A stretch of DNA of 64,000 bases, from assembly GCA_963740085.1 (NCBI GenBank), contig CAVUCU010000001.1:448001-512000 (forward strand), written 5' to 3'. Positions 1,713 to 63,741 of the stretch are shown in pieces. The notes under the pieces were generated by a model. The model saw only the letters and a program-made list of their open reading frames with translations. It was not told where the DNA came from and ran no database searches. The first letter of the stretch is position 1; each line of letters starts with the position of its first letter. The stretch comes from Nitrospirota bacterium. GTDB taxonomy: Bacteria; Nitrospirota; UBA9217. The translations under genes and the position numbers were made by a program.

Positions 1713-1802
1713 TTTAACCGCAGAGACGCAGAGGCGAACTAGAGAAAAATCCTTATCTAGTTTTAATATACGTTTTCCTTGTCTCCGCGTCTCCGCGGTA
1801 AA
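1713..1802. repeat. Intergenic hairpin element, CGCAGAG type
   Basis: tttaaccgcagagacgcagag ... ctccgcgtctccgcggtaaa imperfect inverted repeat around an AT-rich loop. Confidence 0.9.
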
Positions 1803-1805
1803 TAT

Positions 1806-2297
1806 TCAGTCTTTTAGCTTCTCAAAATACGGCCTCAGTCTGTCATACGTCCCGTCAAGCAGTTCCGGCATCACGCGGGTATCGTCAAAGACCGTGATAT
1901 AGCTGGAGTCGCCGGTCCAGCGGGGAACGATCTGAACATGGAGATGTTCGGGAATCCCCGCGCCGGCGGACTTTCCGATATTGATGCCGATATTGAAACC
2001 ATCGGGGTGCATGGCCTGCTTCAGGATCTTCACCGATGCCTGCGTCGTTTTCATCAGATCGGCAAGCTCCGCCTCGGGCAGCCGGTCGACCTCGGACTCA
2101 TGGGTAAAAGGGACAATGAGCAGGTGGCCGTTGTTGTAGGGATAGAGGTTCATGATGACAAAGGAATGCTTTCCGCGATGCAGGATATAGTTCTTGCGGT
2201 CGTCATCCTTCTTCGCTTCCTCGCAGAGGATGCACCCACCGGGTTTTTTAGAACCGAGGATATATTTCATACGCCATGGGGCCCAAAGTCTGTCCAT
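1806..2297 (-). CDS. HIT family hydrolase (Ap4A phosphorylase-like)
   Basis: MDRLWAPWR start, CILC, NLYPYNNGH and HLHVQIVPRW HIT-like motif. Confidence 0.92.
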   Translation of the reverse strand: MDRLWAPWRMKYILGSKKPGGCILCEEAKKDDDRKNYILHRGKHSFVIMNLYPYNNGHLLIVPFTHESEVDRLPEAELADLMKTTQASVKILKQAMHPDGFNIGINIGKSAGAGIPEHLHVQIVPRWTGDSSYITVFDDTRVMPELLDGTYDRLRPYFEKLKD

Positions 2298-2318
2298 ATT
2301 TTTTATACGCAATAAACC

Positions 2319-2434
2319 GAGGGATGACCGTTCACTTCGTTCACTAGGACGATGCACGAAAAGTCAATTGAATTTGAAGCCACCGTCCCTCGTCTCTCAT
2401 CCCTCGTCCGTCGTCCCTCGTCCCTCGTCCCTCG
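2319..2434. repeat. Heptamer-repeat palindrome (GGACGA / CGTCCCT x7) overlapping the udg 3' end
   Basis: Seven CGTCCCT-like units at 2384-2432; left arm contains cgttcacttcgttcactaggacga. Confidence 0.9.
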
Positions 2435-3188
2435 ATTTTTTTATTTTCTCCATCTCGGCAATGACTTTTTTAATATCATCCCAGACGAGCTTTTTGTCAG
2501 ACGGAGTTCTCAGCAGGTAAGCCGGGTGGAACGTGGGCATAAGGGGGATGCCTTGATAGGTCTTCCAGTTGCCGCGAAGCGAAGTGATCCCCTCTTTCGT
2601 CTTGAGCAGCGTCTTGACGGCGACATTGCCCAGACCGATGATGATCTGCGGGTTGATCGCCCGAAGTTGTTTGATGAGGAACGGTTCGCAGGCCCCGACC
2701 TCGTCCGGTTCGGGGTTCCGGTTGCCCGGCGGCCTGCATTTCACGATATTGCAGATGTAGACGTCCTCGCGCTTCAGCTGCATACCCTTGACAATGATGT
2801 CCGTCAGCAGTTGTCCGGCGGCGCCGACAAAAGGCCTTCCCTGCAGGTCTTCTTCCTGCCCCGGTCCCTCGCCCACAAATACGAGCGCGGCATTCGGGTT
2901 GCCTTCTCCGAAGACGATGTTCTTCCGGCCCTTGTGCAGCTTGCAGCGAATGCAATCGCCAAGCTCTTCGCGGACCGCGGCAAGTCCAGCGGCCCCCGAT
3001 GCGAAAGGTCTTTCTACTAATGCAGATGCTGTTTTTACAGGATCCACCTGTGCAGCAACGGGGGCTGTCGACCGGGGCACCCCCCGTAACGGCATCTCGA
3101 CGAAGCTCATTCCTAGCGCTCTTCGATACTCAAGATGCGCCCTGACCTGCTCAACGATCTCTAAAAATTCCCGCTGCATCTCATCCAT
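2397..3188 (-). CDS. Uracil-DNA glycosylase family 4
   Basis: CxxC, VGEGPG..ED..GRPFVG.AG, CRPPGNRNP and TFHPAYLLR motifs. Confidence 0.95.
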   Translation of the reverse strand: MDEMQREFLEIVEQVRAHLEYRRALGMSFVEMPLRGVPRSTAPVAAQVDPVKTASALVERPFASGAAGLAAVREELGDCIRCKLHKGRKNIVFGEGNPNAALVFVGEGPGQEEDLQGRPFVGAAGQLLTDIIVKGMQLKREDVYICNIVKCRPPGNRNPEPDEVGACEPFLIKQLRAINPQIIIGLGNVAVKTLLKTKEGITSLRGNWKTYQGIPLMPTFHPAYLLRTPSDKKLVWDDIKKVIAEMEKIKKSRDEGRGTTDEG

Positions 3189-3219
3189 GAAAATAGAACC
3201 CTTACCATTTCATATTTTT

Positions 3220-3250
3220 ACTCTGAACTCCCAACTCCCCACTCCGAACT
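3220..3250. repeat. Short heptamer tandem repeat (ACTCCSA-like x4)
   Basis: actctga actccca actcccc actccga act. Confidence 0.7.
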
Positions 3251-3254
3251 TTTT

Positions 3255-4106: not shown

Positions 4107-4151
4107 GCTATTCCTTATTCAGTACAGAGACGGGGACCATAATTCTTTTTT

Positions 4152-4310
4152 AACAGGATGTTCAGGATAAACCAGGACTAACAACTTTCAGGAGAAAAGG
4201 GGGACATGGGAGAAATGGAGAAAAGGACGATAACTTATTTATGTTATTTATCCCCCTTTCGCCTCTCAATTCCCCATTTCTCCTGATTGTTCTTTTTGCG
4301 CCTCAGCGGT
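4152..4310. repeat. Composite of hairpin elements (CAGGAT half-arm, TCAGGAGAAA...TTTCTCCTGA hairpin, orphan right arm)
   Basis: caggat-like x3 at 4154-4178; inverted repeat 4188-4286; tttgcgcctcagcggt at 4295-4310. Confidence 0.7.
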
Positions 4311-4320
4311 CACAATCCCG

Positions 4321-6872: not shown

Positions 6873-6894
6873 AATGTGATAATTCCGGTTTTTC

Positions 6895-7048
6895 GGCTGA
6901 AGGCTGAAGACTGACGTAATCTAAAAATCTTTCGCCTTCAGTCTAACCACCTTAGCCTCTCCACCTAATCCTTACCCTTCTACCTTCAGTCTAACCACCT
7001 TTAGTCTCTCCACCTGAATCCCTATCCTTCGGTCTTCAGCCTTCAGCC
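6895..7048. repeat. GGCTGAA/CTTCAGC palindromic element with internal direct repeat
   Basis: 17 bp perfect inverted repeat ggctgaaggctgaagac / gtcttcagccttcagcc; two ~47 bp internal copies starting ccttcagtctaaccacctt. Confidence 0.9.
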
Positions 7049-7055
7049 TAATCAA

Positions 7056-7460
7056 TCATCCATTCTCACCCGAGCCGGAGAATGCCGCTCCCACCAGCAC
7101 CACCTGCGCCACGGCATATCCTTCATCGTGCGAGTAGCTGAGGAGCACCTGTTTCACACCTCTGAGGTCCATGAGGTCCTTCACCCTGCCGGAGAGGTTT
7201 ACGGTCGGGCCGCCGCCTTCGCCGTGAAGCACCTCGATGTCCGTCCACTTTACGCCCGCGCTCCATCCCGTGCCGATGGCCTTGAGCACCGCTTCCTTGG
7301 CAGCGAATCTGCCGGCATAGTGCTGGGCGGGGAACTTTTGCCGGGAGCAATACTCGCGCTCCAGTTCCGTGAACACCCGCTCGAGAAAACCCGCGTGGTT
7401 CTTCCCTGCCTTGTCGATGCGGTCGATCTTCACCAGGTCAACTCCGATGCCGACTATCAT
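7056..7460 (-). CDS. acpS: Holo-ACP synthase
   Basis: GIGVDLV, RFAAKEAVLKAIGTG, SYSHD. Confidence 0.96.
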   Translation of the reverse strand: MIVGIGVDLVKIDRIDKAGKNHAGFLERVFTELEREYCSRQKFPAQHYAGRFAAKEAVLKAIGTGWSAGVKWTDIEVLHGEGGGPTVNLSGRVKDLMDLRGVKQVLLSYSHDEGYAVAQVVLVGAAFSGSGENG

Positions 7461-8370: not shown

Positions 8371-8397
8371 TGCGGTATTGAAACGGCACACAAGCAA

Positions 8398-8466
8398 ACC
8401 ACAGAGAACACTGAGAAAATGAATATCGCATCTGATCTTTACAATTTACGCTGAGCTCTCTGTGGT
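8398..8466. repeat. Hairpin element, CACAGAG type
   Basis: accacagaga ... tctctgtggt, 10 bp perfect outer stem. Confidence 0.8.
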
Positions 8467-8505
8467 GATTTTTAAACGACAGGAAAAACCCAGGAGGTGG
8501 ACTGA

Positions 8506-9685: not shown

Positions 9686-9690
9686 AACCA

Positions 9691-9792
9691 ACGATGGACG
9701 ATGGACGATCGTTCGCTTCGCTCACTAGGACGACGGAGGCCGTATTTCACGATGGAAGCTTTTTCGTCCCTCGTCCCTCGTCTCTCGTCCCT
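9691..9792. repeat. Heptamer-repeat palindrome (GGACGAT / CGTCCCT) between convergent genes
   Basis: acgatggacgatggacgat-cgttcgcttcgctcactaggacga ... cgtccctcgtccctcgtctctcgtccct. Confidence 0.9.
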
Positions 9793-9794
9793 CC

Positions 9795-10732: not shown

Positions 10733-10890
10733 TTTCACCGCAGAGGAACGCGGAGGACTTCTTGAATTACTTCCTCTTTAGCCCCCACCCCCTGCGACCT
10801 CTCAACAGTCTGCTGACAGACTACTTAGTACCGGATTCGCTTTATTCAAGAATCTGAATTTCTCCGCGTCTCTGCGTCTCCGCGGGAAAA
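10733..10890. repeat. Hairpin element, CGCAGAG type
   Basis: tttcaccgcagaggaacgcggag ... ctccgcgtctctgcgtctccgcgggaaaa, with inner ttcttgaat/attcaagaa stem. Confidence 0.85.
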
Positions 10891-12999: not shown

Positions 13000-13024
13000 G
13001 GATGGTCTCCGCAAAAGGAAATTC

Positions 13025-13187
13025 CAACTATTCAGATTGGCCGCAAAAGAACACAAAGAACTCAAAGAAAAAAACCTAAATCATGTCTTTCAATTTTAAT
13101 TCTTTCTGCGTTCCTTGCGTGTTTCTCTAAGTGGCCGGTTCATTTTTTAGGCCATTCGCGGCTAATTGATTTTGACCCGAGTAAATA
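13025..13187. mobile_element. MITE-like ~165 bp palindromic element (CGCAAAG type) carrying a ~34 bp insert
   Basis: Ends caactattcag / ccgagtaaata; homologous to the copies at 32787, 34112 and 13955. Confidence 0.75.
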
Positions 13188-13200
13188 AGGAATTTATTTG

Positions 13201-13954: not shown

Positions 13955-14105
13955 GTAACTACTCAGGTCAAAACCGGTTATCCGCAGAGAACGCAATGAG
14001 CTCAAAGAAAAAGCTTGAATCTTAATTTTTGGTAGCAAATTCTCTCTGCGTTCCTTGCGTTCTTTGCGGTTAATCTGTCTTTCCTAATATCATCCCGAGT
14101 AGTTG
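13955..14105. mobile_element. MITE-like palindromic element
   Basis: gtaactactcag ... ccgagtagttg terminal inverted repeat enclosing a ccgcagagaacgc/gcgttctttgcgg hairpin. Confidence 0.75.
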
Positions 14106-15291: not shown

Positions 15292-15618
15292 GGCCGCAAA
15301 GAACGCAGAGAAATCCAAAAAGATAAAAACGTCAGGTTCCTTCGTCCTTTAGTAAAAAGCTTTTCTCACCGCCGAGGCGCGGAGACACAGAGTACTGACT
15401 TATAGTTAAATCGGATTACCAGGTATTACGTCTTTATTATCCACTGATCAATCCGGATGTAGTAAAGGGTTCCAGGACTTATAAATTCACAAAATTCCCC
15501 ACGCCATTCTCAGTGCCTCTGCGTCTCTGCGGAGCTGCCCAAAAAAACATATGCACACGTGGAGCTTTCTTCTCAAAAAGTTTGATCCATTTCTGCGATT
15601 TCTGCGTTCCTTGAGGTT
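15292..15618. repeat. Nested hairpin elements
   Basis: Outer arms 15292-15316 / 15590-15618; inner arms 15368-15392 / 15509-15532. Confidence 0.8.
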
Positions 15619-16295: not shown

Positions 16296-16465
16296 CCCGG
16301 ACAAGCCGGAACCAAACCTGGAACCGCGATGGCGCGAAGGTCGCGAAGGAAACCAGTCAGATCTTGAAAAAAAGAAATCATATTGTTATTGACGTCCTTG
16401 CGCTCTTCGCGACTTCGCGGTAAAATTCTTACCGTTTTGAGTAGAATTTGATTCCTTAGTTACTA
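16293..16465. mobile_element. Wrapped hairpin element (TAACCCGGACAA head, CGCGAAG hairpin, conserved tail)
   Basis: Head shared with 31486; tail 16422-16454 shared with 63697-63730; hairpin 16321-16421. Confidence 0.7.
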
Positions 16466-16949: not shown

Positions 16950-17023
16950 TGGCCAAAAATAAGAGAGTGTCTTCGACCTCATGCCACTGATCAATTTGCT
17001 TTTTAAAAGAGGAGGAAATTTCC

Positions 17024-18262
17024 ATGACTGCATACAAAGAGATCGATAAATGCCGCGTGAGCGGCAGCAAGAACCTGGTGTCGGTCCTTAATCTCGGGCA
17101 TCAGGTCCTAACCGGTGTCTTCCCCAAGAGCGCGTCCGAAAAGATTACTTCCGGACCTCTTGAGCTGGTCTGGTGCCCCGACGGCGGTCTCCTGCAGCTC
17201 CGACACTCCTATGATCCCGGTGAAATGTACGGTCTGAATTATGGTTACCGTTCCGGACTGAACCAATCCATGGTGAATCATCTGACGGAAAAGGTCAAAT
17301 ATCTTGAACGGCTGGCCGCGTTGAAGTCAGGCGACGTGGTGCTGGACATCGGCAGCAACGATGCGACCACGCTGAAGGCCTATTCGACCAAAGGGATCAA
17401 GCTGATCGGCATTGATCCCACGGGGAGGAAGTTTTCTCAGTATTATACGGACAACATTAAACTGGTCCCGGACTTCTTTACTGCCGCCGCATTTCGCTCT
17501 CTTGAATCGGGTCCTGCAAAAATTGTTACCTCCATAGCCATGTTCTACGATCTTGATGCCCCGGTTGAATTTGCCAAACAGATCGAATCGGTCCTCGCCG
17601 ATGACGGGGTATGGCATTTTGAGCAGAGCTACATGCCTTCGATGCTCCGCATGAATTCCTATGACACGATCTGCCATGAACACCTTGAATACTACTCGCT
17701 CGGCGTGGTAAAAATTATTTTGGAGAAGGCGGGGCTCAAGATAGTCGACGTCGTGATGAACGCGATAAACGGAGGAAGTTTTGCAGTGACCGCGGCCAAG
17801 GCCGGGAACCGTAGCATCGTTCCAAACCTCGCCGTCATCGACTGGCTGCTTGAGCAGGAGCACAGGATGGGGCTGAATACTCCCCGCCCCTACCGCGACT
17901 TTGAGGAGCGCGTCTTCCGCCACAGGGACGACCTTACAAGGTTGATCCGGGCCCTGAATGCGGACGGGAAAAAGATCCTCGGCTATGGGGCCTCGACGAA
18001 AGGCAACGTGGTCCTTCAGTTCTGCGGCCTGACGAATAAAGATATTCCTGCGATCGCTGAAGTTAATGCAGAAAAATTCGGCCACGTTACACCGGGGACA
18101 CACATACCGATCATATCGGAGCAAGAGGCCCGGGCCATGAAGCCGGATTACTTCTTCGTGCTTCCCTGGCACTTCAAGGATGGGATCCTCCGGCGCGAGA
18201 AGGAGTATTTGACAAGTGGAGGAAAAATGATATTCCCGTTCCCGGAAATCGAGATTGTGTAG
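17024..18262 (+). CDS. NDP-hexose C-methyltransferase family protein
   Basis: Zn-ribbon-like N-terminus, DIGSND, YDTICHEH.EYYS, GYGASTKGN, TPGTHIPI, VLPWHF. Confidence 0.88.
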   Translation: MTAYKEIDKCRVSGSKNLVSVLNLGHQVLTGVFPKSASEKITSGPLELVWCPDGGLLQLRHSYDPGEMYGLNYGYRSGLNQSMVNHLTEKVKYLERLAALKSGDVVLDIGSNDATTLKAYSTKGIKLIGIDPTGRKFSQYYTDNIKLVPDFFTAAAFRSLESGPAKIVTSIAMFYDLDAPVEFAKQIESVLADDGVWHFEQSYMPSMLRMNSYDTICHEHLEYYSLGVVKIILEKAGLKIVDVVMNAINGGSFAVTAAKAGNRSIVPNLAVIDWLLEQEHRMGLNTPRPYRDFEERVFRHRDDLTRLIRALNADGKKILGYGASTKGNVVLQFCGLTNKDIPAIAEVNAEKFGHVTPGTHIPIISEQEARAMKPDYFFVLPWHFKDGILRREKEYLTSGGKMIFPFPEIEIV

Positions 18263-18303
18263 CACTACGATAGTAGCTGAGAGGAGCATGGGAAAAACCA
18301 ATA

Positions 18304-19821
18304 ATGAGTGACGAGAATACACACTCCACCAACGATCCGGGTAATTTCCAGGACCTTAAGAGCAAATCGCTGGCAGGAATCGGCTCATTATTGCGCCGTC
18401 AGATATTTGTCTATGGTTTCTTCTTCCTGGGCAATATTGTGCTGGCCCGGATTCTCCTCCCCCAGTTGTTCGGCATCTACGCTATCGTCTCTTTCGTTGT
18501 CCAGTTCTTTTCCACATTTAGCGATGTCGGTATCGGCGCGGCGTTGATCCAAAAAAAGGACAAGCTGAACAACGAAGAGCTATCAACGATATTCTGGCTT
18601 CAGCAGGTACTGGTATTCATTGTCTTCATTCTGGTGTTTCTCGCGGCACCACTCGTATTGCGAATATACACTACAATTCCACCGGAAAGCGTGTGGTTCA
18701 TCCGGGTGATGGCCCTGAGTTTTCTCTTTACATCACTGAAAACAGTACCGGCCATCCTGATGGAAAGGGCTATCGATTTTAATAAAGTAGCATGGGTGGA
18801 TATTTCGGAAAGCGCGGTATTTCAAGTGACTGCAATATCCCTTGCATTAACGGGGTTTGGGGTTTGGAGCTTTATTGTAGCGGCACTGTTCCAGAGTGTC
18901 GTCGGAGTAATTCTTATCTATTCTCTTTCTTCATGGCGACCTTCATTGGTATATAATTTCAATTCTGCACGAAATCTCATCGGCTTCGGCCTTCCCTATC
19001 AGGGAAACACTATCTTAAGTTTTATTAAAGACGCGGTCACCCCTCTGTTCGTCGGCGCGTATGCCGGCGCAGCAGCAGTCGGCTACGTCAATTGGGGGCG
19101 CAATCTTGCCTTTGCACCACTAATGCTTTCACAAAGTTTTGGTAGAGTTGCTTTTCCAGCATATGCCCGGCTCCAGCATGACAAAATGCTTTTGCAGGAT
19201 GCGGTTGAACGGTCCATTCGCATGATGACGCTGATCATGTTTCCTATAACAGCCATGCTGTTTGCATTGGGACCTGAAATAACCCATGTGATCTTTACCG
19301 ACAAATGGAGGCCAGGTTTATTGTCATTCTATTTTTATTGCACTTCGCCATTTATCATAGGCATCATGCTTCCATTATACAGCGCGATCTTGTCACTCGG
19401 TAAGTCCAATCTTCTGCTAAAAATGTCTTCAGTTCTTCTCGTCCTTGAATGGGGTTTGGGTGTTCCTTTTGTTCTGATGTTTGGTTACAATGGGATATCG
19501 TTCAGCCAGCCGATTATTGCTGTGATATTCTACTTTGTATATAAGCACATTCTCTCAGAAGATTTGCTGCACGTTTCTGTGATCCAAAATGTTTATTCAC
19601 AGCTCATGGCCGCTGTTCTATGCGGAATCGTCGTAAAAATCATGATGTCAATGCTCACGGCCAGCATCATTACGTTACCTACATTATTTGTGACAGGAAG
19701 TATCTTTTATGTTTTGCTCATTTATTTTATAAAGAAGGAAATGCTGATAGAGGTTGTTCAATACATCAGAGAGATCATCGGGGGCAGACAGCCGAATTAT
19801 GAAAAAAGTCCTACTGGTTAA
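18304..19821 (+). CDS. Oligosaccharide flippase (Wzx)
   Basis: LARIL.P..FG, D.GIGAALIQ, many TM helices. Confidence 0.9.
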   Translation: MSDENTHSTNDPGNFQDLKSKSLAGIGSLLRRQIFVYGFFFLGNIVLARILLPQLFGIYAIVSFVVQFFSTFSDVGIGAALIQKKDKLNNEELSTIFWLQQVLVFIVFILVFLAAPLVLRIYTTIPPESVWFIRVMALSFLFTSLKTVPAILMERAIDFNKVAWVDISESAVFQVTAISLALTGFGVWSFIVAALFQSVVGVILIYSLSSWRPSLVYNFNSARNLIGFGLPYQGNTILSFIKDAVTPLFVGAYAGAAAVGYVNWGRNLAFAPLMLSQSFGRVAFPAYARLQHDKMLLQDAVERSIRMMTLIMFPITAMLFALGPEITHVIFTDKWRPGLLSFYFYCTSPFIIGIMLPLYSAILSLGKSNLLLKMSSVLLVLEWGLGVPFVLMFGYNGISFSQPIIAVIFYFVYKHILSEDLLHVSVIQNVYSQLMAAVLCGIVVKIMMSMLTASIITLPTLFVTGSIFYVLLIYFIKKEMLIEVVQYIREIIGGRQPNYEKSPTG

Positions 19822-21118
19822 TCCCCATGAGACAGAACAATCGGGATTTACTAACCCGCCGATTGGGCTGCTTTATCTCGCAGGAACCTTGTTGAAACAC
19901 GGTTCCGATGTGCGTGTTGTTGACGGCTGTCTTGAAGGTAAGAAGGCGGTCCAGAATGCGATAGAAGAGTTTCACCCTCAGTTAGTCGGAATCTCCTCGC
20001 TGACTCCCGGGCGCAAGAAGGCCATTGAAATAGCCGATATGGTCAAACGATTTGATTCCAACATAAAAGTTGTTATCGGAGGAGCCCATCCAACTATCAT
20101 GTATCAGCAGATCATGGATAATTATCCTTCAATTGATTATATAGTTCTCGGTGAAGGTGAAGAAACCTTACTTGAGATCGCGCAGGACAAGGAATTATCT
20201 CAGATCAACGGGATAGTATACAGAGATAATGGAAACATATTAAAGACACCTGCCCGGAAGAACATAGAAAATCTTGATCATATCCCTTTTCCGGCATGGC
20301 ACCTTCTTGACCTGCAAAAGTACCCTGCTATCGATGAGGGTGTTTACCGCGGGATTGATCTCGGAAAAGTTCCCCGTATTTCTGTTATATTCTCACGAGG
20401 TTGCTCTGGACATTGTGATTTTTGTTCAACCTGGTGGATATGGAAAGGTTGGCGGCATCGCTCGGCAAAGAACATGGTCGATGAAATTGAACTCCTTTAT
20501 AAGGATCATGGCATACGACATTTCTGCTTCGCGGATGATGCCATGACGGTCAACCGAGAGGCTACGATCGATCTCTGTGACGAAATCATCAGGAGAAAGC
20601 TTGATATAGTATTTCATGCCACAACGAGAACGGATTGTGTAGATGAAGTCGTGCTCAAAAAGATGAAAGAAGCGGGCTGCTACAAGATCGCTTTCGGCAT
20701 CGAAACCGGCTCTCCGCTCTTGCTCGACAGGATGGGCAAGAATAACGATGTTGAAACCTCGATAAGAGCAATTAAACTTGCAAAGGACGCAGGAATATTT
20801 GTGACCGCGCTTATGATCATTGGGAACGTGGGAGAGACCAAAGAAACGGTACAGGAAACGGTAAACTTTTTAAAGAAAACACAACCGGACGAAATCGGCT
20901 GCGTCGGCGGCCTTTGGATACTGCCGGGGACCAAACTGTACCGGGATTGCAAGAAAAAGGGATTTATTGATGATAATTTCTGGCTGACCGACCAACCCTA
21001 TAAGATTTACACTATGGAATATTCTCTTGATCAACTCGATAAGTTGAGGAAACAGGTGCTCGGTTATCAATATTTGATCACAAGAATTCACAAGATGTTC
21101 AAGAGGATGATAAAGTGA
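19799..21118 (+). CDS. Cobalamin-binding radical SAM protein
   Basis: P.GLLYLA, GGAHPT, SRGCSGHCDFC (CxxxCxxC), GIETGS. Confidence 0.92.
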   Translation: MKKVLLVNPHETEQSGFTNPPIGLLYLAGTLLKHGSDVRVVDGCLEGKKAVQNAIEEFHPQLVGISSLTPGRKKAIEIADMVKRFDSNIKVVIGGAHPTIMYQQIMDNYPSIDYIVLGEGEETLLEIAQDKELSQINGIVYRDNGNILKTPARKNIENLDHIPFPAWHLLDLQKYPAIDEGVYRGIDLGKVPRISVIFSRGCSGHCDFCSTWWIWKGWRHRSAKNMVDEIELLYKDHGIRHFCFADDAMTVNREATIDLCDEIIRRKLDIVFHATTRTDCVDEVVLKKMKEAGCYKIAFGIETGSPLLLDRMGKNNDVETSIRAIKLAKDAGIFVTALMIIGNVGETKETVQETVNFLKKTQPDEIGCVGGLWILPGTKLYRDCKKKGFIDDNFWLTDQPYKIYTMEYSLDQLDKLRKQVLGYQYLITRIHKMFKRMIK

Positions 21119-22002
21119 ACTGTCCTCTTTGCAAAAAAAACGACTATAATGAATGGGGCAGGGTTGGGAAATATACCATATTAATGTGCAAAAAGTGCGG
21201 ACTTGGCATAACAGCTCCCTTTCCAACGGAAAAAGAACTGACAGAATCAAACCAGAAAGTCTATCAGGTGGAGCAGCGAATAAAGACGTATCTTTCTCGC
21301 AGGAGCTATTTTGAGAAACGCTATCGAGACAACATAGCTCAAATAAAGCGTTTTAAACATCAAGGCAAGCTTCTCGACGTGGGATGCAACATCGGTCTAT
21401 TTCTAAATGTGGCTAGGGAAGAAGGTTTTTCTGTCATTGGGGTGGAGCTTAATAAAGGATGTGCTCAATATGGGATAAACAATTTCAAGCTCGATATTCG
21501 TTCCGACTATCTCGAAAATGTAGCTTTTGCCGATCAAAGCATTGATGTCGTCACATTATTCGACGTACTCGAACATGTTCCGGATATACATGGTTTTTTG
21601 ACCGAGATAAGAAGGGTTTTGAAAAAGGACGGACTAATAGTTGTTCAGTCACCGAACATCCAAAGCTTAATGGCCGCACTCACAAAGTCGAATTGGAGCT
21701 GGTTGACCCCACCAGATCATTTGTACCACTTTACTCCTGCGACTTTGAAGCTTTTATTAAAAGAACATGGTTGTGATATCAGACTATTGAATACCTGGGA
21801 GCCAGCTCAGGATTTCAGCGATAATTTAATTGTGGCATACATCCCCAGCCTCTTCATTCGCAGCTTGCTTTTAAAGATAAATCAGGCAACCCATATCCTT
21901 ACCTTTCCAATCCTCCTGATTCAGAGACTCTGGTGGCATAAGCAACGGGGCGGCCTTATAGAACTGTATGCTGTAAAGACGGGAGGGAACAATCATCCAT
22001 GA
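21115..22002 (+). CDS. Class I SAM-dependent methyltransferase
   Basis: CPLC...CKKC, LLDVGCNIG, DVLEH, PPDHLYHFT. Confidence 0.88.
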   Translation: MNCPLCKKNDYNEWGRVGKYTILMCKKCGLGITAPFPTEKELTESNQKVYQVEQRIKTYLSRRSYFEKRYRDNIAQIKRFKHQGKLLDVGCNIGLFLNVAREEGFSVIGVELNKGCAQYGINNFKLDIRSDYLENVAFADQSIDVVTLFDVLEHVPDIHGFLTEIRRVLKKDGLIVVQSPNIQSLMAALTKSNWSWLTPPDHLYHFTPATLKLLLKEHGCDIRLLNTWEPAQDFSDNLIVAYIPSLFIRSLLLKINQATHILTFPILLIQRLWWHKQRGGLIELYAVKTGGNNHP

Positions 22003-22835
22003 CAACAATATCAGCGGTCATACTTGCACGCAACGAAGAACATAACATACGCTACTGTCTGGAAACGCTCCGATGGTGCGATGAAATCGTTGTTGTTGAC
22101 ATGGACAGCACAGATAAAACTTCGGTGATTGCGAGAGAATTTACGGATAAAATATTCTTCCATGAAAAGATTCCGGCCTTTGACATTGCAAAAAATTTTG
22201 GGGTGGAAAAAACAACAGGTGAATGGATACTCTTAATCGATGCCGATGAAATGGTTCAGCGCTCTCTGGCAAGCCGGCTTCGGTCAATTGCCAAAGATGA
22301 CACCACGGACATAGTGGAAATTCCATTCAAACATTACATTCTCGGCGAATGTGTGCGGTACACCGGATGGGGATATACTCCCCTGCCCCGGTTTTTCCGA
22401 AAAGGCAAAATACTTTTTACCGAAACAATCCACGGTTATATGCATAAGGTCAAGGATGCGAAGGTTTTAAGACTTGAATCACGCGACGAAATGTGCATTT
22501 ATCATTTTAATTATAGTGACAGCACTCACTTCGTAGAGAAGCTGAACCGATATACCTCTGTAGAGGCGCGCCGTCTCTATGGAGATAAAGTTCCGTTTTC
22601 TTACATACAGCTAATATCTGCCGCACTGAAAGAATTTTTTGGGAGGTATTTTGCGGGGAAAGGATACAAAGAGGGCGCGCGAGGTTTTTCACTTTCTGTC
22701 ATGATGGCATTCTATCGAGCTCTCACTTATATTAAATTGTGGGAGATATACCAGTTCGAAGACGATCCGATCCCGGCACGATATGAGAAAATCCGGAAGA
22801 GGCTATTGACGGATTGGGGGTCAATAAAACCGTAA
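21999..22835 (+). CDS. Glycosyltransferase family 2
   Basis: NEEHNI, VVVD..STD, LIDADE, KLNRYTS.EA. Confidence 0.92.
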   Translation: MTTISAVILARNEEHNIRYCLETLRWCDEIVVVDMDSTDKTSVIAREFTDKIFFHEKIPAFDIAKNFGVEKTTGEWILLIDADEMVQRSLASRLRSIAKDDTTDIVEIPFKHYILGECVRYTGWGYTPLPRFFRKGKILFTETIHGYMHKVKDAKVLRLESRDEMCIYHFNYSDSTHFVEKLNRYTSVEARRLYGDKVPFSYIQLISAALKEFFGRYFAGKGYKEGARGFSLSVMMAFYRALTYIKLWEIYQFEDDPIPARYEKIRKRLLTDWGSIKP

Positions 22836-22836
22836 T

Positions 22837-23625
22837 ATGAAGTGCTGTATATGCGACAACGCTGATACGGCTCCCTATTTCACCTCTGGCAGCCATGTGT
22901 TTGAACAATGCACTCGCTGTGGGCTTGTGTTTGTCTCCAATTTTACGCAGGAAGGCATCTCTTATAAAGGCGACGAGTACTTTGTCCAAAAAAATGAGTA
23001 TGTACAGCGATGGGACGAATTTTGCTCACTGTTCGAACATCTGCTTGCTAAGGTCATGCGTTTCAAGCGGAATGGTGACTTTCTGGATGTAGGCGCTGGT
23101 GTCGGTACCTTAATGCATGTAGCCAAGAAGTATGGATTCACAACGTATGGGGTGGAAGTATCCGAGTGGGCATCTGCATACGCCAGGAACGAACGCGGAC
23201 TGAATCTTGTCACGGGAACGCTCGAGGACGCTTCGTACCCTGATGCTTTCTTCGATGTCATCGTCATCAATCACGTGCTTGAGCATGTGACTACCCCCAT
23301 TAAACTGCTGGACGAGGCGCATCGGATTCTGAAGAATGATGGGGTGCTAGTCGTGGGCGTACCGAATGTCGGCAGCATCATGGCCCGGATCATGCGGGAA
23401 AGGTGGCTCTCCCTGCGGCCAGAGGAGCATATCTGGCACTTCACTCCGAACACTCTTCGGCGCCTCCTGGACAGGGCCGGATTCCATGAGATATGGTTCG
23501 AGGCGCGAGATAACTATTCCGTTCAGGGTTGGGGCCCCAAAGATATTGCTCAGCGAATTATAAACTGGGTATCAGTCATTACGAATCGCTCTGAAGCCAT
23601 GCTCATAATTGCTAGCAAGAAATGA
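22837..23625 (+). CDS. Class I SAM-dependent methyltransferase
   Basis: CCIC...CTRC, LDVGAGVG, NHVLEH, PEEHIWHFT. Confidence 0.88.
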   Translation: MKCCICDNADTAPYFTSGSHVFEQCTRCGLVFVSNFTQEGISYKGDEYFVQKNEYVQRWDEFCSLFEHLLAKVMRFKRNGDFLDVGAGVGTLMHVAKKYGFTTYGVEVSEWASAYARNERGLNLVTGTLEDASYPDAFFDVIVINHVLEHVTTPIKLLDEAHRILKNDGVLVVGVPNVGSIMARIMRERWLSLRPEEHIWHFTPNTLRRLLDRAGFHEIWFEARDNYSVQGWGPKDIAQRIINWVSVITNRSEAMLIIASKK

Positions 23626-24632
23626 TCACCATGACGGATAAAGCCTATATACTTCTGCTGAATTGGAACGGATGGGCAGACACCATTGAGTGTCTAGAAT
23701 CCGTCTTTCGGAACAATTACCCGAATTACCAGGTGATCGTGTGTGATAACGATTCATCTGATAGCTCGCTTGATCATATAAAAGATTGGGCAAAGGGGAA
23801 CTTACAGGTTGCGATTGCAACCGACAATCCACTTTACGCACTGTCCTCCCCTCCGGTCGCGAAACCTATTCCCTATGCTGAGTACACGAGAAAACAGGCG
23901 GAGGCCGGCGGTGATGACAAGGCCAATAATGCCCGCTTGATCCTGATTCAAACGGGAAAGAATCTAGGTTTTGCCGGAGGCAACAATGCGGGCCTCAGAT
24001 ATGCGTTATCGCGCGATGATTTTCAGCATGTATGGCTGCTCAACAATGACACCGTGATCAAGGCAGATGCCCTCACCGCGCTCGTCGGAAGCATGCAGGA
24101 TGATACAGGTGCAGGCATGTGCGGTTCTACCCTGCCGTTTTATCACGACCCCGATATGATTTGGGCGTTGGGCGGAGCGAGCTATAATAAATGGCTTTGC
24201 AAAACCGAGTGCATTGGACTGCGTGAACCACTCTCCCGAACGATCAGCAAGGCCGAGATCGAACGCAGGATGGCTTATCTCGCCGGTGCTTCCATGCTCG
24301 TGTCCAAGGCATTTCTCCAAACCGTCGGCGTAATGAACGAGCGGTATTTTCTCTATTTTGAAGAGCTGGACTGGGCTTTGCGCGCGAAAGGCAGGTACAG
24401 GCTTATCTTTGCGCCGGACAGCATCGTCTACCACAAGGTTGGTGCAAGCATATTGAAAGGGACCAGCCGTGATACCAGTACAGCGGATTATTACATGTTC
24501 AGGAATTCACTGATCATCACGCTGAGCTATCATCCCCTGGCATTGCCGATCGTGCTGCCAAGGGTCCTGACACTCTACCTGTTCAGGCGACTCATGGCAT
24601 TTGCCAGTCGATTAGTCCACGGCCGTCAGTAA
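23622..24632 (+). CDS. Glycosyltransferase family 2 (rhamnosyltransferase-like)
   Basis: LNWNG..DTIECLES, NLGFAGGNN, LLNND, FLYFEELDW. Confidence 0.92.
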   Translation: MITMTDKAYILLLNWNGWADTIECLESVFRNNYPNYQVIVCDNDSSDSSLDHIKDWAKGNLQVAIATDNPLYALSSPPVAKPIPYAEYTRKQAEAGGDDKANNARLILIQTGKNLGFAGGNNAGLRYALSRDDFQHVWLLNNDTVIKADALTALVGSMQDDTGAGMCGSTLPFYHDPDMIWALGGASYNKWLCKTECIGLREPLSRTISKAEIERRMAYLAGASMLVSKAFLQTVGVMNERYFLYFEELDWALRAKGRYRLIFAPDSIVYHKVGASILKGTSRDTSTADYYMFRNSLIITLSYHPLALPIVLPRVLTLYLFRRLMAFASRLVHGRQ

Positions 24633-24649
24633 CGAAAGGAACAAAGGTC

Positions 24650-25363: not shown

Positions 25364-25416
25364 CCTTCGGACGAGTTGCCGATACTGGTGAATCTGCCGT
25401 GGTTATTGAGGATGTT

Positions 25417-26489: not shown

Positions 26490-26531
26490 ACGCTGCATAG
26501 ATAATTAAATGCATCATCTATCGAGATTAAA

Positions 26532-28545: not shown

Positions 28546-28562
28546 AGTCTGGGAGCTTCATC

Positions 28563-28652
28563 CCGCGAAGTCGCAAAGTACGCTAAGAAAATATCGTTGT
28601 TATTATAGTTATTAATCATGCATCCCTTGCGTTCTTCGCGCCTTGGCGGTTC
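28563..28652. repeat. Hairpin element, CGCGAAG type (inverted relative to 16321)
   Basis: ccgcgaagtcgcaaagtacgctaag ... cttgcgttcttcgcgccttggcgg. Confidence 0.85.
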
Positions 28653-41180: not shown

Positions 41181-41194
41181 AAGAACTCCGTTTT

Positions 41195-41310
41195 AATGAA
41201 AATTGAAAAATGCATAACGCAAAATGCAAAATAAGAACCGGTATTGCTCAACCGTTCATGCTCCGTAGTGATTTCATTTTTCATTTTGCACTTTGCCTTT
41301 TGACTTGTCA
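41195..41310. repeat. AATGCAA / TTTGCAC heptamer palindrome
   Basis: aatgaaa attgaaa aatgcat aacgcaa aatgcaa ... ttttcat tttgcac tttgcct tttgact. Confidence 0.8.
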
Positions 41311-41311
41311 A

Positions 41312-42064
41312 CTATTCCGCCGTTATCGGTCCCACCGCGCTGCCGGTGATGAACTGGTGCACGATGGGGTTCTCTGTTTTCCTGATCTGGTCCGGTGTTC
41401 CGGTCTCCAGGATCTCGCCCTTGTACAGCATGGCGATCCGGTCCGAGATCTTGTAGGCGCTGTGCATGTCATGGGTGATGGCCACGGACGTCACGCCGAG
41501 CTTCTTCCGGAGGTCCACGATAAGGTCGTTGATGGCATCGGCTGCGATCGGGTCCAGGCCCGTCGTGGGCTCATCGTACAGGATGATGGCCGGGTCCATG
41601 GCGATCGCCCGGGCGAGCCCCACCCTCTTTTTCATACCGCCGGAAAGCTCTGACGGCATTTTGTCCTCAACATCCTTCAGTCCCACGAGGGCGAGCTTTT
41701 GCGTCGCGACCTCCCGGATCTCCTTGTCGGAGAGGTGCGTGTGCTGCTTGAGAGAGAACCCCACATTCTCCCAGACCGTCAGCGAATCAAAGAGCGCCGC
41801 CATCTGAAACAGCATCCCGAATTTCTTGCGCAGTTCGTTCAAGCCGAAGTCATCAAGATTGTTCATGACCTGGCCGTCCACGATGACCCTTCCCTTGTCC
41901 GGGAACAACAACCCGATGATGTGCTTGATCAGCACGCTCTTGCCGCTGCCGCTGCCGCCGATCACGGTCATGCTCTCGCCCTTTTCAACCGTAAGGTTGA
42001 CCCCGCGGAGCACGGCAAGACTGCCGAAGCTCTTGTGCACGTCGATGATCTCTATCATCGCCAT
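41312..42064 (-). CDS. mlaF: MlaF-type ABC ATPase
   Basis: GGSGSGKS, LSGGMKKR, YDEPTTGLDP, ITHD. Confidence 0.93.
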   Translation of the reverse strand: MAMIEIIDVHKSFGSLAVLRGVNLTVEKGESMTVIGGSGSGKSVLIKHIIGLLFPDKGRVIVDGQVMNNLDDFGLNELRKKFGMLFQMAALFDSLTVWENVGFSLKQHTHLSDKEIREVATQKLALVGLKDVEDKMPSELSGGMKKRVGLARAIAMDPAIILYDEPTTGLDPIAADAINDLIVDLRKKLGVTSVAITHDMHSAYKISDRIAMLYKGEILETGTPDQIRKTENPIVHQFITGSAVGPITAE

Positions 42065-45773: not shown

Positions 45774-45824
45774 TTACGGTCTCAAAATCGAAACGACATG
45801 ATCAGAAAAGCTCCCGTCTTGTCA

Positions 45825-45927
45825 GCCACAAAAGGCGCATAAGACACAAAGCGAATTTTCAAATTTATAAAGGCGTTACCTCTGTGCTCTTCGTGACTTC
45901 TGTGGCAGATCCGTCTTCTTACGGACT
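45825..45927. repeat. Hairpin element, CACAAA type, with CTTACGGAC right end
   Basis: Arms and loop homologous to 31593-31663. Confidence 0.85.
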
Positions 45928-46023: not shown

Positions 46024-46305
46024 ATGCGTCTTCCCAAAGAAATGATCAAACACATCGCCGATGCCATCGCCGCGAACCTTGAGAGCAAGGGTCTGGTTGA
46101 GTATGAGGTGTCGAGGCGCGAGATAGCCGAAAAGATCGCGGAGGTCATCACCGCGGACATGATGGCGGAGGAAGCGCTGAACAAGGACGTGGAAAAGCTC
46201 CTTTCCGCGCACGCTGACGAGATCGCCAGGGAGAACATGGACTACCGGAAGGTGTTCGATATGACCAGGCAGAAGCTCGCGAAGGAACGGGGGATCGTTT
46301 TGTAA
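46024..46305 (+). CDS. DUF507 family protein
   Basis: MRL.K..I..IA...DYRK.F...+.KLAKERGIVL. Confidence 0.82.
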   Translation: MRLPKEMIKHIADAIAANLESKGLVEYEVSRREIAEKIAEVITADMMAEEALNKDVEKLLSAHADEIARENMDYRKVFDMTRQKLAKERGIVL

Positions 46306-46324
46306 CACCGCCAAAGAATAATTA

Positions 46325-46432
46325 AACCTTTGACACGGATAAAGGCGGACTGAATTATGAAGAAGCAGGATAATTTCTTGATTTATCCGATTTTATCAGG
46401 ACCTTTATCAGAATTCATCCGTGTCAAAGGTT
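46325..46432. repeat. Hairpin element, CACGGAT type
   Basis: 16 bp perfect outer stem aacctttgacacggat / atccgtgtcaaaggtt. Confidence 0.9.
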
Positions 46433-46513
46433 CTTTCTTGACATTATAAGATTCGCGCAACCATGTTTACGTTTTCAAGATAAATAACATATGCAGGGAG
46501 AAGACCAACCGCC

Positions 46514-46792
46514 ATGCGCCTAAGCGAAGATAGGATCTCTCACCTGTCCCATCTGATCCAGGACATGCTGATCCGGAACAGGAACATCGATATACTGGAG
46601 ACGGAGGAACGCGTCCTCCGCGAGACCAAGCGGACCATCGCCGACGAGCTCAAATTCGAAGACGAGGCGGACGAGGCTGCGCGGCGCATCATCCAGTCGC
46701 TGTCGCGCAGGGTCCCCGAGGGCAGCCGCGAGTGGGACGTCCTCTATCGAAAATACCGGGAAGAAGAGATGAACAGGAGAAAAAAAGTTTGA
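46514..46792 (+). CDS. DUF507 family protein
   Basis: MRLSEDRISHLSH...VPEGSREWDVLYRKY.EEE. Confidence 0.85.
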   Translation: MRLSEDRISHLSHLIQDMLIRNRNIDILETEERVLRETKRTIADELKFEDEADEAARRIIQSLSRRVPEGSREWDVLYRKYREEEMNRRKKV

Positions 46793-61769: not shown

Positions 61770-61959
61770 TTTTGGCGACCTCCGAATTGTAATGATGGAA
61801 TTTCAACGCTTCAAAATATAACATCAAACGCGCGGATTGACAAGCAAAAAATCAGTGAGGGAATCTGCTGAAACGCGGATGGAGCAGATCGGCCGGATAA
61901 GGAAAGCGTGCGCGGAGAGTGGCAGGACGGGGAACGCGCAGCCGGTCAGGTACACGGTG

Positions 61960-62496
61960 TCAACCATCCCTTTTCAATTCAACATTCCAGTAGAGGTAAT
62001 CGCGCCAGCTCAAAGGCGCGTTCTTGATCCCGAGCGTAAGCGTGACCACCGGCATCCACCGGGGTTTCGCGGGCGGTCTGATCAGCCTCATGTTCGCCTC
62101 ACGCGGGGTCCTGCCTCCCTTTCGGTTATTGCAGGAGAGGCAGGCCGTCACAATGTTCTCCCAGGTGGCCAGGCCTCCCTGCACCTGCGGTATGACATGG
62201 TCGAAGGTAAGGTCCTCCGCCGGATATTTCACACCGCAGTACTGACAGAAGTATTTATCGCGCTGGTAAATATTGGCACGGGAGAACCTCACTTCGCGGC
62301 TTGCGCGTCTGATCTTGACGAGCTTGAGCAAACGGAGGATCGAGGGAAGCCTGAAGGTGAGGGAAACACCCCGGATATCACGGTCATAGGAGTCGATCAC
62401 CTCCACCTTGCCCTGAGTGAGCAGGGTGATCGCCCTCTGCCAGGAAATGATCTTTAGCGGCTCGAATGTTGCGTTCAGGAGCAGCGTCCGTTCCAT
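61960..62496 (-). CDS. HNH endonuclease
   Basis: MERTLLLNA.FEPL, CQYCG, TFDHVIP..QGG..WENIVTACLSCNNRKG. Confidence 0.93.
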   Translation of the reverse strand: MERTLLLNATFEPLKIISWQRAITLLTQGKVEVIDSYDRDIRGVSLTFRLPSILRLLKLVKIRRASREVRFSRANIYQRDKYFCQYCGVKYPAEDLTFDHVIPQVQGGLATWENIVTACLSCNNRKGGRTPREANMRLIRPPAKPRWMPVVTLTLGIKNAPLSWRDYLYWNVELKRDG

Positions 62497-62581
62497 TTGC
62501 AACCCTCGGTGAATGCCGGAACGTCTTGAAATCGATGTCCCGGATGAACCGAAAACACAAAAACACGCTCGTTGAGGTATA

Positions 62582-62632
62582 AAAATACATAAAAAGGTAA
62601 CATTTGTCAATAGGGTTGAAACTTTGTATAAT
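62582..62632. promoter_or_regulatory. Back-to-back sigma70 promoters with overlapping -35 boxes
   Basis: Minus strand TTGACA-N17-TATTTT; plus strand TTGTCA-N17-TATAAT. Confidence 0.65.
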
Positions 62633-62638
62633 GGGGTA

Positions 62639-63520
62639 ATGTCCGAATCCGAGGAGACAAGAAGCGAGCAGGCAATGGCCGCGAGCGAGGAAGAGATCGC
62701 CAGGTATCTCCATGATCCTTCGCCCAGGGTCATTCGGGCACTGCTCGAAAACAGACGCCTGGTCGAGGAAGATGTCCTGATCATCGTGAAAAGAAAGAAC
62801 CTGCCCTCGAACATCCTCGAAATGATCTTTAAGGACAAACGCTGGGCAGAGAGCTACCCGGTGCGACATGCCCTCGCCCGGAATCCCCGGTCACCGCTCT
62901 CGGTCTCGCTCTCCATCGCCCGCTACCTCCGGATCTTCGACCTTGAAGAGATAACGCGCAGCCATTTCATTCCCCTCGTCTTCAGGCGCAAGGTCGAGAT
63001 GATCATCAACGAGCGGATCCCCGCCATGCCGCTGGGGAACAAGAAGACGCTCGCCAAGAAAGCTGCTGGCGACGTTCTGCTTAAATTGCTTCTCGACGCC
63101 GACGCCGAGGTCGTGAAACTCTGTCTCAACAATCCCCATATCACCGAGGGGCACTTCTTTAAGGTCATCAGTCGCAAAGACACACGCGCAGAGACGATCC
63201 TGATGATCGCGGAACACCCGAACTGGTCAAGCCGCACTCCGATACGGTTCTCCCTGGTCCGCAATGCGCATACACCCCTCTCACTATCAGTACGGTTTCT
63301 CGCCGCCATGAAGATCGCGGACCTGAGGGACCTCTATGCCGATCCGTCCGTACCCGTGACCATCAAGCCGTTCGTCCACCGGGAACTCTGGCAGCGCGGA
63401 GAAGAACCAACACAGGTTGTTGAGGAAAAGGTCTTTGAAATAGGTGAAGAAGAAATGGCGGAGATCGAAACGGAAGGAGGAATGCCGATGCTTGTTGATG
63501 AAGAGGAACAGAAAGAGTGA
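62639..63520 (+). CDS. Hypothetical helical-repeat (LRV-like) protein
   Basis: Repeated V...L..NP motifs (VRHALARNP, VVKLCLNNP, SLVRNAHTP). Confidence 0.8.
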   Translation: MSESEETRSEQAMAASEEEIARYLHDPSPRVIRALLENRRLVEEDVLIIVKRKNLPSNILEMIFKDKRWAESYPVRHALARNPRSPLSVSLSIARYLRIFDLEEITRSHFIPLVFRRKVEMIINERIPAMPLGNKKTLAKKAAGDVLLKLLLDADAEVVKLCLNNPHITEGHFFKVISRKDTRAETILMIAEHPNWSSRTPIRFSLVRNAHTPLSLSVRFLAAMKIADLRDLYADPSVPVTIKPFVHRELWQRGEEPTQVVEEKVFEIGEEEMAEIETEGGMPMLVDEEEQKE

Positions 63521-63525
63521 GGGGG

Positions 63526-63741
63526 CCCGGCCTTGTCAAAGCGGTACCATAAATCGGTCTCTCGCAGAGCACGCAGAGAACACAGAGTTAATTCAAAACC
63601 CTCAAGTCATGGTTTTAACCCAAAAATTTTCAGCTTCTCTCTGCGGCCTCTGCGGAAGTCCTAAGTGGCCGCTTTTCTTTCATAGGCTACTGCGAGAAAA
63701 TTTCTTACCGTCTTGATACGAATTTGATTCATAACCGACTA
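63526..63741. mobile_element. Wrapped CGCAGAG hairpin with ~34 bp insert and conserved tail
   Basis: Arms 63559-63587 / 63637-63698; insert 63655-63689; tail homologous to 16422-16454. Confidence 0.75.

Follow-up and report, generated by a model that had tools for sequence, protein, structure and literature searches.

The stretch of DNA considered here, hereafter the window, comprises 64,000 nucleotides of a Nitrospirota bacterium (C1:448001-512000 of genome G000, which spans 3.46 Mb at 54% G+C in 7 contigs), and our subject is a set of small hairpins that lie between its protein genes and whose arms carry short repeated words. The gene content is ordinary housekeeping on both strands (mutS, pdxJ, folD, lon, mla genes, alr and an rpoD-like gene) together with a polysaccharide/glycosyltransferase island at 17000-29000, which is of lower G+C (0.43-0.52) and mostly not common to the three congeners with which the window was compared (G001, G004 and G006, with good synteny and ~85-93% amino-acid identity). 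Rfam, searched over the whole window at the gathering score, gave 0 matches. Arms of the same build surround two kinds of small gene elsewhere in the genome and in other phyla, namely genes of the PD-(D/E)XK nuclease family PF13366 (PDDEXK_3, 'GxxExxY') and genes for the 23S rRNA intervening-sequence (IVS) protein PF05635 (23S_rRNA_IVP). We consider it likely that the hairpins are gene-less members of one family of palindromic insertion cassettes which in its full form carries one or the other of these genes.

Hairpins of the window

A reading made from the letters alone (the original prediction) had listed 16 complete hairpins and four orphan half-arms, and when the sequence was read at all 20 sites the 16 hairpins were found where they had been placed, with a partner arm at p<=0.025 in 15 of them when a complementary arm was sought within 380 nt of each claimed left arm and its score was compared with 200 shuffles. 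The hairpin at 13039 has no significant partner (p=0.22) because a small insert at 13128-13154 splits its right arm. The elements at 15292 and 15368, which had been listed one after the other, are nested and do not stand side by side, the partner of 15292 lying at 15582-15616, so that this hairpin spans 323 nt and encloses 15368-15532. Among the half-arms, 29897, 31525 and 32736 carry the words, and 61872 has one word and is unsupported as a member; no partner arm was detected for 29897, 31525 or 61872 (p>0.25). The half-arm at 32736 turned out to be the left arm of an outer hairpin, the right arm of which (CTTTGCG...GCGAGA) survives in G001 and G004, and the hairpin at 32801 is nested in its loop, so that the window contains two nested hairpin pairs.

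The left arms had been described as runs of a heptamer close to CRCRRAK. At least one strict CRCRRAK is present in 15 of the 16 left arms and at least two in 8, and the relaxed word C[AGT]C-N1-3-A[GT] occurs in two or more copies in 15; the hairpin at 46325 has a single strict word, and those at 31593 and 45825 are built of 8-9-nt CACAWAAG words with 0 or 1 strict CRCRRAK. Four hairpins of the same build with other words (4180-4294, 6892-7051, 9691-9781 and 41198-41317) had not been listed. The purine-rich arm comes first in all 16, as predicted; since either strand of an inverted repeat presents the same arm on the left, the order reflects the handedness of the repeat, and a bias of strand or replication was rejected on that logic.

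The elements are listed below. Strand is given for the two mini-inserts, all other elements being entered without one; bp fractions and p values describe the pairing with the partner arm, and scores refer to the comparison with arms of nuclease or IVS-protein cassettes (L numbers). Family A is the sequence family to which 13039, 32801, 34113 and their relatives belong.

1712-1803: hairpin of ACCGCAGAG/ACGCAGAG words, flanked by a mutS-like and a HIT gene (19/21 bp, p=0.005, folding free energy z -5.0); best match an arm of nuclease cassette L073; kin hairpins in G004 and G006, and a 440-nt CAGGAGN-armed unit in the G001 spacer
4180-4294: hairpin with GGAGAAA-type words; best match the nuclease cassette arm at G000 C4:111176 (L005), score 12.5
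6892-7051: hairpin with GGCTGAAG words; the words at this spacer are ACGAATN in G004 and CACARAG in G001, with an empty spacer of 30 nt in G006
8398-8466: hairpin in a 5' leader, with ACCACAGAG/AACACTGAG words (18/23 bp, p=0.005); absent from G001, G004 and G006
9691-9781: hairpin of ACGATGG heptamers, IVS-protein type; arm matches IVS-protein cassette L121 of G006 (score 22), and 28 nt of the loop share 93% identity with the L121 trailer
10739-10876: hairpin with CCGCAGAGG/AACGCGGAGG words and a long loop (19/21 bp, p=0.005); best match L073, score 18.5
13024-13190 (ends approximate): family A element with GGCCGCAAAAGA... words and an outer 12-bp terminal inverted repeat, one of 28 copies; the spacer is 54 nt in G006
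13128-13154, plus strand: mini-insert TAAGTGGCCG...AGGCCA, interrupting the right arm of hairpin 13039
13970-14081: hairpin with CCGCAGAGAA/CGCAATGAG/CTCAAAG words, a relative of family A, with 42-nt arms (27/34 bp, p=0.005)
15294-15616: outer hairpin CCGCAAAGAACGCAGAG enclosing the 15369 hairpin (partner 15582-15616, 28/32 bp, p=0.005)
15369-15532: inner nested hairpin ACCGCCGAGGCGCGGAGACACAGAG (19/24 bp, p=0.01); score 24.5 to an arm of nuclease cassette L068, of another genus
16323-16421: hairpin with ACCGCGATGG/CGCGAAGG words (23/27 bp, p=0.005); matches own-genome nuclease cassette L006 (C1:322977), score 19.5
28563-28649: hairpin with CCGCGAAG/TCGCAAAG/TACGCTAAG words (20/24 bp, p=0.005)
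29897-29920: solo arm ACCGCGGAGACACGGAG, no partner (p=0.34); score 17 to L078; the spacer is 35-40 nt in G004 and G006
31315-31394: hairpin with CCACGGATGAA/CACTGATGG words (p=0.01); matches L075, score 17
31525-31557: solo arm ACCACGGATGCACACTGATGAGCACGGA, no downstream partner; pairs only with the right arm of the adjoining 31315 element
31594-31665: hairpin with GCCACAAAATG/CACATAAGG/CACAGAA words (14/15 bp, p=0.005); best match the arm of IVS-protein cassette L111 (14 vs 9)
32736-32766: left arm TCTCGCGCAAAGCCGCAAAAGCCCGCAAAG of an outer hairpin that has lost its right arm in G000; nuclease cassette L093 of G008 matches with a score of 20.5
32798-32900: family A element in the loop of the 32736 element (p=0.015); present in G001, absent in G004, and the whole 32736/32801 spacer is 6 nt in G006
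34114-34204: family A element, used as blastn query (24/32 bp, p=0.005); absent from the spacer in G001, G004 and G006
41198-41317: hairpin of TGCAAAA heptamers, IVS-protein type; score 18.5 to own-genome IVS-protein cassette L013; TTCCGCA and ATCCGCA words in congeners
45822-45909: hairpin with GCCACAAAAGG/CGCATAAGA/CACAAAG words (23/29 bp, p=0.025)
46325-46432: hairpin AACCTTTGACACGGAT between two DUF507 half-genes (18/19 bp); word type of cassettes L002 and L077
63556-63697: hairpin with TCTCGCAGAG/CACGCAGAG/AACACAGAG words (p=0.005), its right arm carrying a mini-insert; scores 20 against L076, which is orthologous to cassette L001 of the same genome as the window
63662-63689, plus strand: second mini-insert copy, TAAGTGGCCG...AGGCTA

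Beside the unsupported arm at 61872, a free-standing HNH endonuclease gene occupies 61960-62502; it is shared by G000 and G001 (94% identity) and was not found in the syntenic stretch of G006.

Placement and turnover

The predicted excess of CRCRRAK-periodic inverted repeats over shuffled intergenic DNA is borne out by the genome as a whole. The double word CRCRRAK-N0-4-CRCRRAK has 134 matches, and its complement 147, in 582 kb of intergenic DNA, where 20 dinucleotide shuffles give a mean of 4.2 each (at most 9 and 8), and left-then-right pairs of the word no more than 200 nt apart number 61 vs 0 in the shuffles, with 5 in right-then-left order. An ungapped inverted-repeat scan of the intergenic DNA returned 207 hairpins vs 5-18 in five shuffles, among them 124 with tandem-periodic arms (0-4 in the shuffles) and 171 with the purine-rich arm first. 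CRCRRAK, which had been proposed to unify a superfamily, marks a sub-class linked to the nuclease gene: 49 of the 173 periodic hairpins of the genome have at least two CRC-type words, and CAGGAGN, TGCAAAA, ATTGGAA, AGTTCAN, ACGATGG and GGGTNCA are found in others of the same build.

The hairpins fill tight operon junctions, mostly between co-directional genes, as the predicted placement in operon spacers would have it. On the gene coordinates of a crude custom caller, co-directional genes flank 118 of the 135 periodic intergenic hairpins (88%), convergent genes flank 9 and divergent genes 8, the corresponding shares of intergenic length being 71%, 11% and 18%; their median distance is 17.5 nt past the upstream stop and 25.5 nt ahead of the next start, and 60% of the occupied co-directional spacers hold no more than 60 nt of other DNA, vs 4% expected from spacer length. 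Spacers with two or more hairpins number 3 vs 6.1 expected, in a merged list that drops nested copies and so provides no evidence against nesting. Intrinsic terminators were considered and rejected, a run of five T following only 1 of the 16 window hairpins, 88% of the hairpins standing between co-directional genes, and the positions not being conserved among congeners. Loops as a continuation of the stem were likewise rejected, their folding energy being no lower than that of shuffles (mean z -0.14, n=138). A separate class of hairpins, with a C-rich arm first (CCCCTCACC...GGTGAGGGG; L024 at the DUF507 junction of G006, and C1:759688-759764 and C3:70779-70827 of G000), occupies the same kind of junction as the word-armed hairpins.

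Within one genus, species differ by the gain, loss and replacement of hairpins, which also nest in one another. For example, the spacer at 6873-7055 is in four states in four genomes, those at 9686-9794 and 41181-41311 each show three word types, and 8398, 29897, 13039, 34113 and the 32736/32801 pair are each absent in at least one congener. Metagenome contigs (DNA, from four runs) include some that skip 6874-7060, with 6873 joined to 7061 by 28 other letters, and, in two runs, some that skip 8379-8492, with 8378 joined to 8493 by 14 other letters. The orthologous spacers of congeners being empty or holding a different element, the prediction of a dispersed system resembling miniature inverted-repeat transposable elements (MITEs), as opposed to terminators, is upheld. 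The two half-genes of DUF507 (46024-46792) abut or overlap in most relatives (gap -1 to 33 nt), and at their junction G004 and G005 have an empty stretch of 31 nt; the unrelated inserts of 104-512 nt that it holds in G000, G001, G006, G012, G013 and G026 make it a hot spot for small palindromic elements. At C1:300665 a CGCAGAG cassette is common to three genomes, frameshifted in G001; G004 has a CGCAAAG cassette there with a protein identity of only 63%, G003 (the closest genome, host dS 0.17) has an empty CACGGAG hairpin, and G008 has none. A further repeat, GTCATCCCCGC...CTGGATTCCCG...GGGAATGAC, was seen in G001 only, in the spacers orthologous to 3189-3254, 4107-4320 and 46306-46513 of the window.

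Cassettes with a nuclease or an IVS-protein gene

PF13366 has 6 genes in the genome and PF05635 about 8, not all of which are intact, and the window contains none of either family. An automatic ungapped search detected inverted word arms around 4 of the 6 PF13366 genes and 6 of the 8 PF05635 genes, with spans of 420-500 nt, and word arms or flanking hairpins were recognized by reading the flanks of the remaining cassette genes, including the other two PF13366 genes. The link to small GxxExxY genes that the original prediction had offered thus proved right for all 6 PF13366 genes of the genome, each of which lies beside or inside such arms. All 14 cassettes lie between called protein genes, as the window hairpins do, and 13 of the 14 cassette genes are co-oriented with the gene upstream. 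At L001:1440-1502 and L007:1843-1900 the upstream host gene ends in the left arm, its last 10-17 residues being encoded by the words; that two host frames end inside the arm points to insertion at or just before the stop codon and to a cassette read with its operon.

The words of the arm differ with the gene inside. In a sample of 121 genomes of the phylum, 25 of 35 nuclease genes have an upstream arm with two or more CRCNRA words, and for IVS-protein genes the count is 3 of 34 (odds ratio 25.8 and p=9e-8 in a Fisher test, related genomes not being independent). In other phyla, where the nuclease sample comprised the best 80 relatives of at least 601 PF13366 loci (78 examined, 64 with arms) and the IVS-protein sample the PF05635 genes in four of the same genomes (16 examined, 11 armed), CRC-type words occur upstream in 45 of the 64 armed nuclease loci and in 0 of the 11 armed IVS-protein loci, and about 12 further nuclease loci have the same words in the downstream arm, the printed arms having been judged by eye. 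The best period is 7 nt in 0 of the 64 nuclease arms vs 9 of the 11 IVS-protein arms, and the 'heptamer spaced 8-10 nt' of the original prediction is therefore the signature of the nuclease type. Compared with both sets of arms, 14 of the 16 window hairpins score higher to nuclease cassettes, several of these from the same genome (L001/L076, L006 and L002), and all four solo arms score best to nuclease cassettes (61872 weakly); the hairpins at 9691 and 41207 score best to IVS-protein arms. By their arm words, most of the 16 window hairpins belong to the class of word-armed PF13366 cassettes.

Nuclease cassettes of reversed handedness were also seen: L136:340-830, in a metagenome-assembled genome of the Pyrinomonadaceae, and about 11 other loci have a pyrimidine arm (CTTTGCG...) upstream and a purine arm downstream, and their CTCACG end motif faces the gene and not the flanks. 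That the gene need not sit in the loop is shown by this reversal in some phyla and by a layout of hairpin, gene and hairpin at C1:550. In heterocystous cyanobacteria, short tandemly repeated repetitive (STRR) heptamers are found in intergenic DNA, where they are described as direct arrays and not as inverted arms around a gene. Two PF05635 genes of a Nostoc genome (L222 and L227) are bracketed by tandem TGTCATT/AATGACA heptamers, which are like the STRR repeats.

The residues G24, E27, D67, E77, K79 and Q91 are invariant in 26 PF13366 sequences, and the structure model of the protein is confident (predicted local distance difference test, pLDDT, 95.4). With this model Foldseek returned loose, generic PD-(D/E)XK relatives (Cas4, lambda exonuclease, Hjc), and the nuclease sequence gave chance-level matches only against solved structures; PDDEXK_3 is listed with function unknown in PMC3424549. 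A PF05635 protein of the genome matches PDB 2gsc (E=8e-21), whose five chains all have that sequence and which is cited as a homopentamer in PMC4990558.

In 70 pairs of cassettes from different phyla the arms are at least 90% identical over at least 20 nt, the genes being 61% and their third codon positions 37% identical; tandem words can slip register, which flatters such arm alignments. The dN/dS of the nuclease gene is about 0.10 in one orthologous pair. In the dispersed hairpins, the original prediction had taken the arms of a copy to match each other better than those of other subfamilies, and had concluded that the pairing is maintained. That claim was not supported, own arms pairing no better than arms taken across copies within a word family (mean rank 0.508, p=0.97, n=76), so that copy-level covariation is not seen. 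Sense-strand mismatches in 118 hairpins comprise 86 of the G:U type vs 88 of the A:C type. These results are read as selection that keeps words and pairing in the gene-carrying source elements and not in each dispersed copy.

Origin of the hairpins and wider meaning

Ordinary MITEs, derivatives of a DDE-type insertion sequence that depend on its transposase for movement, would account for the words as the make-up of their terminal repeats, and family A looks like them. It has 28 blastn copies in both orientations, about 150 nt long, with a conserved loop and the ends GTAWCTRCTCAG...CTGAGYAGWTAC, and its orientation relative to transcription is mixed (8 same, 15 opposite). Direct repeats flanking it, parsed in 11 of the 28 copies, score 4.64 vs 1.63 +/- 0.56 in shuffles (0 of 500 reach this value), and one copy has a perfect 8-mer duplication, CTTTATTC. 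The class as a whole, however, has no duplication signal, most word families share arms but have unrelated loops, and the same words bracket PF13366 genes across phyla. No autonomous partner of family A was found in this genome, in which 65 end-like sites include one pair 250-4000 nt apart, enclosing histidine-kinase genes, and no longer element with these ends carries a transposase. As an account of the class, MITEs of this sort appear improbable to us.

The hairpins might instead be host RNA elements kept for the benefit of the cell, such as processing sites, mRNA stabilisers, terminators or binding sites of global regulators, which would suit their position inside operons, where they are transcribed, and some copies may indeed have been co-opted. 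A parallel is found in Geobacter metallireducens, where, in the available text of PMC2700814, 'global regulator binding sites' of classes 1-3 are multicopy, fold-back intergenic sequences of about five tandem heptanucleotides; those with five tandem MTYCTGA words, the complement of the TCAGRAK words common in the present genome, are listed as putative sites of integration host factor (IHF) or HU, and no link to a cassette gene is drawn there. The orthologous junctions of congeners, which are empty or hold a different word type, speak against a host function, as do the lack of an excess of G:U over A:C mismatches and of covariation, the lack of an Rfam match, the single T run in 16 hairpins and the depletion from divergent promoter regions (6% of hairpins vs 18% of intergenic length), and we judge such a function quite improbable. 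Repetitive extragenic palindromic (REP) sequences, to which the original prediction likened the hairpins, and their paired forms (REPINs), moved by a Y1 tyrosine transposase (RAYT), are likewise dispersed, extragenic, non-autonomous hairpins of high copy number, with several types per genome, each also beside one small gene, sometimes nested and with insertion into copies (as described in PMC3116915), but inverted word arms occur within 260 nt of 0 of the 4 Y1-transposase (PF01797) genes of this genome, the arms are tandem 7-11-nt words and not single REP palindromes, and the associated genes, usually inside the hairpin, are PF13366 and PF05635, so that this account is contradicted and retains hardly any probability.

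The reading which we favour, that of gene-less members of a cassette family, would give each element arms of 2-4 tandem short words (7-11 nt), the two arms being inverted copies of each other, and in the full form a single small gene without a promoter of its own would lie between them and be read together with the operon of the host. The nuclease type would have the PD-(D/E)XK gene (PF13366) between arms of 8-11-nt CRC-RRR-K words, and the IVS type the PF05635 gene between arms mostly of 7-nt words; the CRCRRAK hairpins of the original prediction would then be the empty version of the nuclease type. On this reading the elements behave selfishly, landing at tight gene junctions just after, and sometimes just before, a stop codon, turning over between species and nesting in one another. 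At least some of the empty hairpins are gutted cassettes, as two of 143 loops (including that of 9691) retain 28-30 nt of the trailer of the cognate cassette at 90-93% identity.

The closest known relatives appear to be the IVSs of rRNA that bear an open reading frame (ORF). According to PMC4990558, the IVS in helix 45 of the Coxiella burnetii 23S rRNA is a selfish element of 428 nt with a 28-bp stem of three tandem heptamers around an S23p ORF of ~120 aa; RNase III cuts in the stem, and its origin and way of moving are given as unknown. The IVS-protein cassettes of the present genome share this build and size (420-500 nt) and lie in a transcribed unit; the gene-carrying forms likewise have a tandem-repeat stem around a small ORF, and the window copies are such a stem with no ORF. 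The elements described here differ in standing between the protein genes of operons and not in a 23S rRNA helix, most of them are empty, and the CRCRRAK type carries PF13366 in place of S23p/PF05635, with 8-11-nt words, PF05635 being confined to cassettes with heptamer words. By analogy with these IVSs, we give even chances to the idea that arms in an operon transcript would form a roughly 25-bp double-stranded RNA stem cut by RNase III, the gene for which (rnc) is present in the genome; insertion inside operons would in that case be tolerated because RNase III would cut the stem.

What the enclosed proteins do is a matter for more tentative proposals. The words may be the binding register of the enclosed protein, a suggestion that we lean slightly against; that the nuclease itself moves or copies the element seems to us unlikely. 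The arms also receive inserts of their own. The pattern TAAGTGGCCG-N-AGGCYA, 28-36 nt long, has 17 exact matches in G000 (15 of them outside the window) vs 0 for the reversed control. Each of the 17 interrupts the pyrimidine arm of a CRC-word hairpin at the same point, between the final two words, and the orientation is always the same, across at least four word families; such a distribution suggests a tiny element with the arms themselves as its target. A joint and rather doubtful reading would have PF13366 read the 8-11-nt CRC-RRR-K words and the ring-shaped PF05635 the 7-nt words, one per subunit, in a two-branch, phylum-crossing system of 'messenger-RNA intervening sequences' that insert at operon stop codons, are rendered harmless by RNase III cutting of the stem, and are ridden by a 28-36-nt hyper-parasite in the pyrimidine arm (17/17).

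Several observations weigh against the cassette reading. Family A, the largest family and present in 3-5 copies in the window, is MITE-like in its 12-bp terminal inverted repeat and 8-bp duplication, and no cognate nuclease cassette was found for it in this genome. A general target duplication of 6-10 bp is not apparent, 8-mers at >=7/8 flanking 10.4% of 173 hairpins vs 8.1 +/- 1.9% in shuffles. Loops resemble cassette interiors above the 99th percentile of the null in 6 of 143 cases (1.4 expected), 2 of them clearly, and descent of the hairpins from cassettes by deletion is shown for very few. Handedness is not fixed, about 12 of the 64 nuclease cassettes of other phyla having the pyrimidine arm first, and the predicted rule of the leading purine arm is to that extent not universal. 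Foldseek with the PF13366 model gave nothing at E<=0.001, and since the IVS protein is no known nuclease, one enzyme cannot explain both cassette types. The figures on junction placement rest on the calls of the custom gene caller mentioned above, and, as regards the RNase III step, among the listed runs containing the stretch none is on record as RNA.

The cassette family is widespread in bacteria, and we found no published description of it; no account of word-armed PF13366 cassettes in operons came up in a literature search that covered papers outside subscription-only access. If the cassette reading is true, much of the between-gene 'junk' in the operons of Nitrospirota, and likewise in those of Acidobacteriota, Cyanobacteria, Verrucomicrobiota, Planctomycetota, Bacteroidota and others, would be empty copies of one class of element. 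It would also tie together three long-standing puzzles: the origin and spread of the ORF-bearing IVSs of rRNA, the roles of the PF13366 and PF05635 families, and the tandem heptamer and octamer repeats, including those annotated as regulator sites in Geobacter. A concrete rule would follow, in which the nuclease gene goes with CRC-type 8-11-nt words and the IVS-protein gene with 7-nt words, and annotators would be warned not to take such hairpins for terminators or riboregulators.

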